From NCBI GenBank assembly GCA_951406725.2, contig OX597841.1, forward strand, positions 18,538,001 to 18,602,000: 64,000 nucleotides of DNA. Reading direction: 5' to 3'. Of the stretch, positions 21,701 to 27,644 are shown in pieces. The translations under genes and the position numbers were made by a program. How positions within the stretch are numbered: position 1 is the first letter of the stretch; every line of letters starts with the position of its first letter. The stretch is from Octopus vulgaris. Taxonomy: Eukaryota. Below the pieces are notes generated by a model. It did not search any database. It was not told the origin of the DNA and saw nothing but the letters and a program-made list of their open reading frames with translations.

Positions 21701-24700
21701 GAATCTACAAAACCCCATACAGGCAACAATGTTTTAGCAGAAACAGAACCAAAGCATGAGCCCATCAGCGAGCCATCTTATTGCAATAGCCTTACTAGTG
21801 AAACAGCAAACTTCCTTCATGCAAGCAATTCACAGATGGATTTATTTAACGACTGCAGTGACCTTTTGCCAGATTATAGCCCCACGAAAAAAGGTGAGGC
21901 AAGAAATGGTCGATTTTATCCTAATATCCTGGATGTCGGGGAGAACCAAATAAGTGAAACAATAGAAGAGCAAGTAGAAAGCAATAACATTTGTTTAGCA
22001 AAACCAACACCTATTTGTCAGCCCATTAATATTCTTCCCGAATGCGAAAATACCATCAAACGTAGCTCAGAGACGAATACTCTAAACCGTAGCCAAAAAA
22101 ATATTGTCGAAACGTGCTCGAATGATTTTCGCAATTTCTGCAATAATGCGTGTGTTCTCGTCAATGAAGAAGAGGAGGTTAAAATAACAGGTCAATCCTC
22201 AAAGAATATGAACTCTGATTATAAAAACTTGGACGTAAGTCGAAATCTGATGGGCGCATGTAACAGTAATTCAGATGTAGGTGAGAATCGGCCAAACACA
22301 AATTACGGAAACTCAGGTAAAAGCGATAACAAACAAGAAGTATCATACAAAAGTAAAAGTAGTTTAACTGAAACAGAACCAACATGCCAACCCATTGAAG
22401 TTCTATCTTATTGCGATGATGCAGCCAACAAGAAGATAAGCCTTCCTTATACAAGTAGTTCACAGACGAGTATCTTCAACGGCTGCAGTGACGTCTCAGA
22501 CTATAGTAAAAACAATAAAGATGTAATCAGAACTGATCGATTTTATCCCCAAATCCAGGTTGACGAGGAAAACCGAAAAAGTGAAAACAAAGAGAAGTAC
22601 GTGGAAAGCAATAACAATTGTTCAGCAAAACTAGGGTTGAGGTGTCAACCCATTGTTATTCCACCTAATGACAGAGATGCCGTCATATATAATTCACAGG
22701 TAAATGTCCTTAACTACAACAGAAGTGATATTGTTGAAGTGTGTTCGAAAAACGTTCGTAATAATGTTCCTGTTGACGACAATGCAGAAGAAGGGGATAA
22801 CGAAGCGAGCCACTCTACAAACATGAACACAAATTATAGGACTTTAAGCGTTAAACGAAATGCAACTGACGAAGATTACAGTAACCCTGATGGAATGCAG
22901 ACGAATTCCAGGAGGGGAAATTCAGATGAAAGTGAAGATCCAATGAACGCCAATCGCAGTAAGACAGACGTAAAGGGAAAGTGGACAAACACGAATGTTC
23001 GTGGAAACTTAATGAATTCGAATTATGTAAATTTGCATATAAGTGATAATTGTTTGAATGAAAATTGCAGGAACTCAGAAGTTTGCGGAAATCAGACGAA
23101 CACGAATCACAAAAAGGAGAAGGCAGAGGAAGAGAGGGAAAAAGAAGAAGATGAATCTATGAAACCCGACAACAGCACGAGTGGTTTAGCTGAAACGGAC
23201 CCTAGATGCCAACCCACTGAAGTTCCATTTCTGTACTATCCTGCAGCCAGCGAGAAAGAAAATGTTTATCACAGAAGCTGTTCCAAGATGAATAATCTTA
23301 AGGGTTGTTGTGAGGCTGAATTAGACGATGAACACACCAATAAAGATGTACTCAGAAATGATGAATTTTATCTTAAAATCCAAGTAGATGAGAAGAGGAG
23401 GAATGAAAAGAAAGCAGGGAGTGTGGAAAGCAATGACTGCTATTTAGCAAAATCACAGTTTATTAGTCAATCCGTTGTTGATTCACTTAAAAGCAGAGAT
23501 GTCCTGGAACACAGTAGAAATGACGCTGGTAAAACATGCTCGAATAACGCTAGCAGTTTTTACAATGATAGAGCTGTCTTCACCAATTCAGATGAGGATT
23601 ATGAAAGAGCCGAATCCTTAATGAGCACCAACGTGAATAACAGAAATTCTGACGTAAGTGGAGAACAAACGATGAGAGTCAATCACGGAAATTTGTACGT
23701 AAGTGGAGAACAAACGATGAGAGTCAATCACGGAAATTTGTACGTAAGTGGAGAACAAACGATCCCAAATTACGGAAACTTGGATGTAAGCGGCCAACAA
23801 CAAAACGGAGACTCAAACTTGAACGGAACTCGAATGAAAACAAGCTACAATAAACCTGAAGGAAAAGAAGAAGAAGAAGAAGAAGAAGAAGAAGAAGAAG
23901 AAGAAGAAGAAGAAGAAGAAGAAGAAGAAGAAGAAGAAGAAGAAGAAGAAGAAGAAGAAGAAGAAGAAGAAGAAGAAGAAGAAGAAGAAGAAGAAGAAGA
24001 AGAAGAAGAAGACGACCAACAAGGACAAGAATCTTTGGAAGTCGACGATAGAAAGAAAAGTTTAGTTGGAATGGAATGTCATCGTGATGTCGTTCTGTTG
24101 ACGTGCTGTGATGCAACCAGTGAAAGAACAAGCGTTTCTCACACAAGTAGTTCACAGATGGTCGTCTTTAACGACGGCACTAACGCTGTCTCAGATTATG
24201 GTCCCACCCACGAAGATGTGACAAGAAATGATCGATTTCACCCTACAATCCTGGCTGGCGAAGAGGATCGAAGAAGCAAAACTGCAGAGGAGGAGTGTGT
24301 GGAAGTCGATAACAGCAGCATACGTTTAGAACCAGCAGACTCGTGTAAAGGTGTCACATGTAGATCACAGGCGAATATCCTTAACCAGAACAGAAATGAT
24401 ATTGTCGAAGCGTGTTCAGGTGAGGTTCACAATTTCTGCAATGACGTCCCTATCCTCAAAAATGTAGAAGAGTTTAAAGAAAAAGTCCAATCCTTAAAGC
24501 GTACGAACTCAGATTATGGAAATCCGCACGCAAGTCAAAATCCGACGAAAGAAAATCCCAACAACCCAAATGTATGTGGAAATCGAATGAATGCTAATTA
24601 CGGAACATCAGGTGTAAATGGAAATTTGACAAACAAAAACTGTGGAAAGTCAGACATAACTAAAATTCCAAGAACAGAAGAAAATTGTGGGAAATCGAAA

Positions 24701-27644
24701 GAAAGTGGCAAACTGGTCGACGCAAATTTCAATGAGTTAAACGTAACTACAAATCAGATGAACACAAGTTATAGAATCTCAGAAGTAAGTGGAAAACTAA
24801 CGAAGGAAAAGCTCAGCATCACGGAAGACGGCAACGATGAGGAAAAAGAAAAATCTAATAAAATTCACAAAAGTACGAAAAATTTAGTTGAAACGGAACG
24901 GAAGCGTCATCTGGTTGAAGTTTCGTTAATGTGCAATGAATGCAACGAGAATGCAAACTTTTCTCACACAAGCAGTTCACAGACAAAGATTGTTAATGGC
25001 TGTAGTTGCACCAATAAAAATGTTGTCAGAAACGACGAGGAGAAGCAAAGAAGACAGAAGGTCGAAGAGCACGAGAAAAACAATAAGAGAAGAAAAGCAG
25101 AGTGGAAGTGTCAGTCCGTTGTAAGTCTATCCAGAGACAGAGATGTTAGCATACACGGCTTACAGACGAATATCATGAACTGTGGCAGAAACGGTTTTGT
25201 CCAAACGTTTGCGAATGATGTCCTTAATTTCTGCAATAATGTCCATGCAGTCGGCAATGTAGAAGAAAAGGAAAACGAATCAGGGCATTGTTCAGCGAGG
25301 ATAAACTCAATATATGGAGATTCAGGCGTTTGTCGAAACCCGACGAACGCAGACGTATGTGGAAATTGGAATAACACAAATGATGGAAACTCGGTAAATT
25401 CAAAATGCAAAAAATCAGAAGCGAACGGGAGTCAGACAAAAGCAGACGACAAAACCCCAGAAAAAGGAGATAAGGAAGGAGAAGGGAAACTAGTAAGGAA
25501 AATCCTCAAAGGCAACGGTGAAATAGAAACAGACCGTCACACCATTGAAGGTCATTACGGAAATAATGCAGCCAGCGACAGAGCCAACATCTCTTACAGA
25601 AGCAATTCACAGATGGATAGATTTAATGGTGACACCAATAGTGACGTCACCAATGATCGATTTTATCCCCAAACCCAGGAAGACAAGGAAGCCCGAATAA
25701 GCCGAAAAGAAGGAGGGCATACGGAAACTGATAACTGCCGCAGCTCTTTAGCAAATCTTGGTTCCCTATGTCAATCAGTTGGTATTCCACTTATTTGCAG
25801 TGATGCCATAAGCAGCTTGCAGACGAATGTCTTAAATCAGATCAGTAATGACCGTGTCGAAGGGGGTTCAAATAACGTTTACTCCTTTTGCAATAATGTC
25901 CCTGCTCTCATCAGGGCACAAGATGACGAAACAAATCAAAGCTCAAACAGGATGAATGCAACTAACGGAAACTTGGATGTAAATCGAATTACATCCAATT
26001 GCGGTAAGTCAAACGACATTGGGAAGCGGACGAATTCCATCTGCGGGAAATTAGAGGCAGATGAAAATCGGGTGGACGCCAGTTGTGGAAACTGGAATGT
26101 AAATAGAAAAAGAACGAGTGAATATTGTGAAAATCTGCACGTAAGTGGAGATCAACCGGGAAACGCAGACGTAAGGGAACATTCTAGAAATTCAAATTAC
26201 GTTTACTCAGATATAAGCGGGGATAGAGTGAATTTATATCACGGAAAATTAGAAAACGGAGATAAGGAAGGAGAAGAAATGTCAATGAAAATCCACAAAA
26301 GCAACAATGATTTAGTTGAAACGGAACCGGAGCGCCATCCAAGAGAGGTTCCATTTCCATGCAATATTACAGGAAACGCGAAAGCAAACTTGTCTGAGGT
26401 AAACAACTCAAAGGTGAATAGCTTCAACGGTTGCAGAGACGTTGTCTCAGATACTGGCCTCGTCATTAAAAATGCAACTAGAGATGATCGATGTTATCTG
26501 AAAACCATGCCTGGCGATGAAGATGAAAGGGAAAAGGAAGTGGAAGTAGAATACGTGAAAACGTTCAATAGCAACAGTTCTTTAGCAAAACTAGAGTTAA
26601 GATGTCAGCCCGTTGATAATTCAACTCTGGATTCGCATACCACAGTACATAAGTCACAGGAGGCCAGCTTAAGCGACAACAGCAGCAGTGATATCGTCGT
26701 TGGACGTTCGAATGTCAGTCGAAATTCTGGCAGGGCTATCCCTTTTCTTAACAATGCGGAAGATAACTCACCAAGAAAGTTCTCAAACGGAACTAACCCA
26801 AATTACGGAAACTCAGACGTAAATGGAAATTTAACGAATAGAAATTACGGAAATTCGGAATATGAAGATAAGGATCAAGAAATATCTAAGAAAATCGACA
26901 ACAGCAATAATTATTTAGGTGAAGCGCAACCTAAGCATAATCCCACGAAGGTCCCATTTCTGTGCAATGCTGCAACAAGCAAGAGGACAGACTTTCCTTA
27001 CACAAGCAATTCACTGATTCACAACTCTCATGGCTGCACTGATGTTGTCTCAGATTATAACCACATTGAGGAAGATGTGGCCAAAGATGATCGATTTTCT
27101 CCTAAAACCCAGGCAAACAAGGAGGCCCGAGGAGGTCAAAAGGAAGGAGAGTATGTGAAATCCGACAAGAGCAGAAACAGCTCTTTACCTACAATAAGTC
27201 CTGTTTGCCAGCCCGTGGCTAATCCACCTGGATGCAGTGATGCCATAAATTGCTCACAGAGCAGTAATGATGCTGTGAAAAAGAGTTCGAATGACGTTCG
27301 TAGTTGCCGCAGTAATACTCTCTCTGTTCTCGACGATGCTAACGACGGTGGCTTAATAGGAGAGATATCGAACAGAACGAATAGAAATTGCAAAACCATG
27401 GATGCGGATGGAAATCGGACGAATGTAAAGAACCTCGCTCAAGATTCAAGTGGAAAGTCGACAAATGCAAGTTACGGAATCTCAGACTTAAATAGGAATC
27501 ACGCGAATACACCGCTATTCCGGATTGAAAATCCCAATTGCTCCGATGATCAGCGTGTACCTGCGGCCAATGACAAGACAGCCTCCTTCCCGATCATCCT
27601 CTCAATCGATCAGCAAGAATCTTTCTATTCTGATCTCCCACCAA
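18782..27644 (+). CDS. Giant (~8.86 kb) coding exon; unknown acidic, Asn/Ser/Cys-rich repeat protein (~2954 aa), probably continued by splicing
   Basis: Open frame 18767-27733 with an upstream in-frame TGA (18752-54) and first ATG at 18782 (A at -3). Pyrimidine-rich acceptor ending ctag at 18544; donor A|GTAAGT at 27645, followed by SINE-like sequence. No TE or non-triplet microsatellite lies inside. No recognisable domain. Confidence 0.8.
21740..27500 (+). repeat. Eight diverged in-frame tandem repeats (603-876 bp) inside the giant exon
   Basis: Units start near 21740, 22370, 23192, 24068, 24890, 25526, 26318 and 26921 (ETEP/ETDP-like). Most carry SQ...FNGC, (R)NDRF(Y)P, LAK...CQP/S, N.LN..RND.VE.CS....FCN and N-rich subrepeats. 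Confidence 0.85.

Follow-up and report, generated by a model that had tools for sequence, protein, structure and literature searches.

Introduction

RAD51AP2 binds RAD51, and not DMC1, through its C terminus, and its expression is restricted to meiotic tissue. The human protein does not bind yeast RAD51, and 154 amino acids (aa) of RAD51AP2 are absent in mouse. The exons of the human gene encode 1083, 27 and 49 aa, and the last of them contains the whole RAD51-binding region (PMC1636435, available sections). In mouse the C terminus is needed for localization, and the protein stabilizes recombination intermediates, chiefly in the X–Y pseudoautosomal region (PMC8754306, available sections). Here we describe a gene located in a 64,000-nt window of the Octopus vulgaris genome (assembly GCA_951406725.2, contig OX597841.1, positions 18,538,001 to 18,602,000 of the forward strand; all coordinates below are those of the window, and the gene lies on the + strand). 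The gene probably encodes a RAD51AP2-like recombination accessory protein, in which an array of eight repeats likely forms a disordered spacer whose frame, rather than sequence, is selected. Strict orthology with RAD51AP2 is a further claim, which we favor by a small degree.

Two other proteins provide points of comparison. BRCA2, a recombinase-binding protein, carries eight diverged BRC repeats in one giant exon (exon 11). RAD51AP1 (PIR51) is about 335 aa in length and largely disordered. It has DNA-binding sites and a W-x-P-P sequence at its Site-N, and we take it to have no giant exon.

The structure of the gene

Starting at the 5′ end, the untranslated leader (18649–18781) contains an in-frame stop codon (TGA, 18752–18754) ahead of the ATG at 18782. 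Assembled contigs begin at 18649 in the case of X1 and X16 and at 18706 in that of X17, and all pass unspliced through the stop and the ATG; X16 and X17 are from a single study, and the three runs are from two. The giant first coding exon (18782–27644) comprises 8863 nt, that is 2954 codons plus one nucleotide, and terminates at a phase-1 GT donor at 27645. Its first part (18782–21733) encodes a non-repeated acidic Ser/Asn-rich N-terminal region of about 985 aa, with poly-Glu at its end, in which neither a Pfam domain nor a ninth repeat unit was found. Within it lies a 12-bp coding minisatellite of 4.3 copies (20840–20891); run X17 lacks 36 nt of it, an in-frame length polymorphism.

Alignment of the X16 and X17 contigs ends at 27644, beyond which they have 115 and 331 further letters, respectively. 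A contig of DNA would continue into the intron, so the halt at the donor indicates that these are spliced; from their length and the RefSeq models the leftover letters probably correspond to exon 2. Run X1 covers the 5′ part and not units 4–8, and gives no evidence either way. Exon 2 (34524–34613) has 90 nt (30 codons) bounded by AG and GT, and the last coding exon (40946–41064) has 119 nt up to the TGA. Both were mapped from the C termini of two Octopus RefSeq proteins, and both introns are GT–AG and phase 1. The run contigs, the RefSeq tails and the donor therefore define a gene of three coding exons, one of 8863 nt and two short ones of 90 and 119 nt. The two downstream exons are what identify the gene, and they were missed by the first-pass annotation of this region. 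At the acceptor of the last exon (40939–40947) both RefSeq proteins have an additional Ala, as would be expected if a tandem acceptor had lost its first AG in the window.

The complete protein has 3023 aa and a net charge of −193, with a basic KRRR cluster near its end, in the last exon. Hydropathy indicates neither a signal peptide nor a membrane helix.

The putative RAD51-binding motif of the last exon

The last exon contains the sequence R-I-G-L-S-K...L-H-P-Y-I-K, a motif of the RAD51AP1/AP2 type. Arg, Leu, Leu, His and Tyr are located at offsets 0, +3, +12, +13 and +15, and are followed by Ile-Lys. In RAD51AP1 the residues R316, L319, L328 and H329 are needed for RAD51 binding, as are L1134, L1143 and H1144 in RAD51AP2, where the motif is followed by a Tyr-Leu-Lys that is common to the vertebrate proteins and not found in RAD51AP1 (PMC1636435). 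Thus all the residues known to be needed for binding by RAD51AP1 and RAD51AP2 are present in the octopus protein at the published spacing, together with the AP2-type Tyr (Y-I-K compared with Y-L-K). For an exon of 38 residues the chance of finding six such positions is about 1e-7 to 1e-6, a figure calculated post hoc. The pattern R..L.{8}LH occurs once in the 3023 aa, and Pfam RAD51_interact (PF15696) is the sole family match of the last exon (E 0.0086). In a structure of RAD51AP1 determined by electron cryo-microscopy (PMC12704761, available sections) the segment LRLGLSR occupies a pocket under the N-terminal domain of RAD51, and the Leu-His pair a groove on the ATPase domain. The octopus counterpart of LRLGLSR is LRIGLSK.

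The arrangement of the exons is also that of RAD51AP2. One very long exon is followed by two short ones (2954, 30 and 39 codons in octopus, and 1083, 27 and 49 in human), the second having about 27–30 codons, and the binding motif with its Leu, Leu, His and Tyr at the published offsets is encoded wholly in the last. In both proteins a long N-terminal region without recognizable domains tolerates large changes in length. Since exon layout and final motif both match RAD51AP2, the octopus protein is likely to be a RAD51-binding recombination helper. The two proteins differ in length (3023 against 1159 aa), and in the eight-unit, two-level internal repeat of the octopus protein, a feature that the available sections of PMC1636435 do not mention for RAD51AP2. 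Moreover the host is a protostome, and outside the motif there is no demonstrable similarity of sequence.

The motif is common to RAD51AP1 and RAD51AP2. Close to its C-terminal end the octopus protein shares with RAD51AP1 the Site-M segment (LRLGLSR in RAD51AP1) and the Leu-His of Site-C, with the same distance between them. The gene might be orthologous to RAD51AP1, or carry the motif independently, and have acquired its giant first exon; the product would still bind RAD51, but would not be specifically related to the vertebrate RAD51AP2 proteins, and a meiotic role would not be required. A sea cucumber gene is reported under the name RAD51AP1 (PMC9700323, available sections), so the motif is not in itself new outside the vertebrates. 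In addition, exon 2 carries a Trp placed 46 residues ahead of the motif His, close to the spacing of 42 between W304 and H346 of RAD51AP1. However, that Trp lies in W-K-K-P and not W-x-P-P, and a strongly acidic protein of 3023 aa (net charge −193) with no [FW]xPP is unlike one of 335 aa with DNA-binding sites. The AP2-type Tyr, which belongs to the Tyr-Leu-Lys that RAD51AP1 lacks, and the layout of one long and two short exons are both present. We therefore regard this alternative as unlikely.

Octopus relatives and conservation of the tail

When units 1 and 2 were used as query, a single match was found among 3889 candidates. This was XP_014790363.1 of Octopus bimaculoides, with 80% BLAST identity across units 4–8 and the tail. 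A hidden Markov model (HMM) of the units, compared with 1.84 billion protein cluster representatives, gave two matches. One is XP_036371267.1 of Octopus sinensis, identical at 881 of 894 positions to the end of the protein encoded by the window. The other, a bacterial repeat protein (E 6e-4), was rejected as a chance match. Pfam gave weak compositional matches only, both for the open reading frame (ORF) and for the units. Thus the initial impression that the unit resembles no known family has held up. The two RefSeq proteins share the spliced tail. At 1278 and 893 aa, respectively, both models are 5′-truncated, and both bear the low-complexity label ‘putative uncharacterized protein DDB_G0282133’ without functional assignment. 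By their sequences they appear to be orthologs or alleles of this gene.

The tail (exons 2 and 3) is the conserved part of the protein. Between O. vulgaris and O. bimaculoides 66 of 69 residues are identical (28/30 in exon 2 and 38/39 in the last exon), compared with 986 of 1191 (83%) in units 4–8 (Fisher p 0.0025). A search of the PDB sequences with the last exon gave no matches, and none of seven candidates passed in a comparison of the tail with shorter proteins. Against metagenomes one of 508 candidates passed; it is bacterial, by our reading an L33-like ribosomal protein, and was rejected. Searches of the ESM Atlas with the tail and with unit 2 returned blank output, which bears on neither absence nor novelty.

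The repeat array

The array lies in an open frame of 2992 codons (18755–27733, + strand), wholly inside the giant first exon, in agreement with the proposed origin by intra-exonic duplication. It comprises eight tandem units of 201–292 aa that span 21734–27526, with starts spaced by 630, 822, 876, 822, 636, 792 and 603 nt, exactly as the first-pass annotation had reported. Unit 1 (21734–22363) has 210 aa and is followed by unit 2 (22364–23185, 274 aa) and unit 3 (23186–24061, 292 aa). The latter contains a recent triplication of a 45-nt sub-repeat (23636–23763), the copies of which are still 95% identical, and a 49-codon poly-Glu tract (23865–24012). Next are unit 4 (24062–24883, 274 aa), unit 5 (24884–25519, 212 aa), which is without the RFYP stretch, unit 6 (25520–26311, 264 aa), unit 7 (26312–26914, 201 aa) and finally unit 8 (26915–27526, about 204 aa).

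On pairwise alignment all 28 pairs of units outscore every one of 100 shuffles per pair (z 5.5–34.7), and the amino-acid identity of the cores averages 34%. By autocorrelation 42 nt or a multiple of it ranks among the top peaks for most of the units; in unit 3 the period is 45 nt. These sub-repeats of 42 and 45 nt, the 14–15-aa elements noted earlier, lie inside the eight units, which confirms the two-level hierarchy. When the window was scanned with a DNA profile of the cores, all eight units were recovered along with several sub-repeat tails, and there were no copies beyond this ORF. The tree of the units is star-like, and the divergence between them is ∼5.7 times that between two octopus species; the array therefore likely arose in a single old burst.

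Some of the features that had been ascribed to the units are present in part. Poly-Glu precedes units 1 and 4, but long acidic linkers lie ahead of only some units rather than of each. The best Cys columns are occupied in 7, 6, 6, 4 and 4 of the eight units, but none is invariant. RFYP is found in three units, but the complete NDRFYP occurs exactly in just one and the stretch is missing from unit 5. Only two columns of the alignment are invariant, one Ser and one Asn.

At 26493, 24658 and 26823 the window differs from all covering runs, and these are rare alleles or assembly errors. At the first of these, in unit 7, the window encodes Cys where runs X16 and X17 and both RefSeq proteins have Phe.

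Selection on and folding of the repeat units

Codon models were fitted to 169 codon columns of the units (kappa about 2.9). The maximum-likelihood dN/dS ratio (omega) is 0.82, 0.84, 0.87 and 0.92 under four models. Among the models that do not allow rates to vary MGK+F3X4 fits best, and under it the penalty in 2*dlnL for setting omega to 1 is 0.86. A value of 0.5 is rejected, at a penalty of 47.5. An excess of synonymous change among the units, set beforehand as the test of a conserved domain, is thus essentially absent, with omega = 1 rejected in one of six models. Identity among units is almost flat with respect to codon position (0.61, 0.59 and 0.57), and between the window and run X17 the change is synonymous in 13 of 46 altered codons, where 25–28% is expected under neutrality. 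In contrast no stop codon is seen over the unit tree, where about 45 would be expected if the frame were not selected. Clear selection is seen for the open frame alone, and the sequence of the units changes almost as freely as unconstrained DNA.

The apparent motifs were compared with 400 replicates of a neutral simulation of unit evolution. There are 17 well-kept columns, where the simulation gives 13.7 ± 3.3. The simulation reproduces the unit motifs at P 0.055–0.21, that is within chance or at its edge.

The units are predicted to be disordered. FoldIndex is negative for all eight cores and for 84% of its windows. AlphaFold2, run on unit 2 with the eight-unit alignment, gave no confident fold (mean predicted local distance difference test score (pLDDT) 38.7; predicted template modeling score (pTM) 0.10), with pLDDT below 50 for 194 of 204 residues.

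Eight diverged repeats inside a giant exon of a (here predicted) recombinase-binding protein invite comparison with the BRC array of BRCA2. The eight BRC repeats and the FxxA and FxPP motifs are named in the available sections of PMC11229353. However, the octopus gene has no BRCA2 Pfam match, the units show no FxxA or FxPP register (one FxxA and no FxPP in the whole protein), and they are about 200–290 aa in length and evolve near-neutrally. The RNDRFYP-like element might nevertheless be a short functional motif, which would be compatible with the proposed identity of the gene. It is the best-kept seven-column window (0.61 against a simulated 0.53 ± 0.05, P 0.07), and the ortholog retains slightly more of the columns conserved between the paralogous units, at 189 of 218 (87%) compared with 460 of 563 others (82%, p 0.11). 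The Cys-for-Phe change of unit 7 moreover reads Phe in the runs and RefSeq proteins named above. Neither test is significant, however, the element is lost from unit 5, and heterogeneity of rate between sites is very low (gamma shape 7.7), so that we think a function for it rather improbable. A bolder version, in which RAD51AP2 is an ancient meiotic gene of bilaterians that can be recognized solely from its exon layout and an 18-residue tail, and the octopus elements are BRC-like multivalent contacts to the recombinase or axis that arose independently of BRCA2, is doubtful to a similar degree.

A reading of every unit as a folded domain that binds metal through its Cys, in line with the metal-binding beads proposed in the first-pass annotation, now seems highly improbable. 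Three Cys columns are occupied in 6–7 of the eight units (P 0.055 for Cys columns against the neutral simulation), and His is kept at 28 of 30 positions in the ortholog. Yet no Cys or His is invariant, no CxxC or CxxH pair recurs across the units, and omega is close to 1. Cys is kept at 36 of 43 ortholog positions and other residues at 1052 of 1259, so it changes at the background rate, and the low pLDDT also argues against a fold. Although the sequence of the unit has not been described before, the evidence does not support a new folded domain. A non-genic identity for the ORF, as a transposable element, a satellite or some other repeat, would agree with the near-neutral divergence and the repeat-rich window but is extremely unlikely, given 2992 open codons, copies confined to the ORF within the window, no reverse transcriptase or transposase domain, units lying in single low-depth contigs where a short interspersed repeat of the intron reaches depths in the thousands, and canonical splicing to a conserved tail, which therefore already refutes it barring copies dispersed through the genome.

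Other features of the window

A reverse transcriptase of a non-long-terminal-repeat retrotransposon occupies positions 1–3041 (+ strand) in two overlapping frames (RVT_1, E 1e-14). Intron 1 of the gene contains a nested inverted repeat of about 640 bp (29975–30619), with arms that are 93–96% complementary about a 10-nt center, resembling a miniature inverted-repeat transposable element or a foldback element. Downstream, an assembly gap of 100 N is followed by a 70-bp satellite of 33 copies with 94% matches (44147–46575). A frame of about 636 codons on the − strand (46753–48663) is almost pure Thr/Ala and is encoded by a trinucleotide tract; it is either mucin-like or a mere microsatellite. The first exon of a claudin/PMP22-family gene lies on the + strand from 50626 to about 50820 (Claudin_2, E 1e-8), and presumably resembles those of the calcium-channel gamma (transmembrane AMPA receptor regulatory protein) subunits.

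Separately, a search of viral contigs for eukaryotic RAD51 returned one recombinase of 319 aa, archaeal-type and RadA-like by our reading of the ORF, on a 70-kb contig (L002, 907–1866, − strand).

Discussion

The RAD51-contact residues at the published spacing and the exon layout point to a RAD51AP2-like protein, and the two-level repeat is likely a lineage-specific disordered expansion inside its giant first exon. Several observations weigh against this. The RAD51_interact match scores 16.7 bits, under the 25-bit cut-off, and covers profile positions 22–39 only. The four residues ahead of the motif differ from the mammalian stretch, the deletion of which abolished localization of RAD51AP2 in mouse (PMC8754306), and neither FxPP nor WxPP occurs in the protein. 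Searches with the tail, in which 2 of 24 and none of the seven candidates passed, gave Octopus only and neither a vertebrate RAD51AP2 nor an invertebrate intermediate, although a motif of 18 residues is easily missed by such searches; the link consequently rests on that motif and the layout of the exons. As regards the spacer, omega = 1 is marginally rejected in one codon model (GY+F3X4, p about 0.047), and an NG86 omega of 0.69, a method that ignores transition bias, hints at slight constraint, as do the values for the Cys columns and the RNDRFYP window. The alignment given to AlphaFold was shallow (eight sequences), so the low pLDDT is weak evidence when taken alone.

By analogy with RAD51AP1, the Arg and Leu of R-I-G-L-S would enter the pocket under the N-terminal domain of RAD51, while the Leu-His pair would sit in the groove on its ATPase domain. 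The protein would most likely dock on RAD51 nucleoprotein filaments through its last exon, and help to stabilize them or the intermediates or products of strand invasion. If the protein behaves as mouse RAD51AP2 its role is most likely in germ cells and meiosis. The acidic region of 2950 residues would probably act as a disordered tether, or as a weak multivalent surface, without a fold of its own, for which length and frame would matter more than sequence. The units, all of which end with copies of a 42-nt micro-repeat, would have arisen in a burst and been drifting since. On this basis some 1900 residues of protein repeat would be kept for their frame alone, and the apparent motifs would be mostly retained ancestral residues.

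RAD51AP2 has been described as specific to vertebrates (PMC1636435). No report of an invertebrate RAD51AP2 was found among the literature matches listed, which cover few subscription journals and do not extend to database annotations, and the available sections of PMC4787752 contain nothing on invertebrate distribution. The value of the present finding lies in the gene surrounding the repeats, a candidate protostome RAD51AP2 with a repeat expansion, and it suggests a likely function for two uncharacterized Octopus protein models. If true, a protostome RAD51AP2 would move the family back to the bilaterian ancestor. Mouse RAD51AP2 is needed mainly for the X–Y crossover (PMC8754306), and the octopus gene would then raise the question of what role RAD51AP2 plays in a lineage whose sex chromosomes follow another system.

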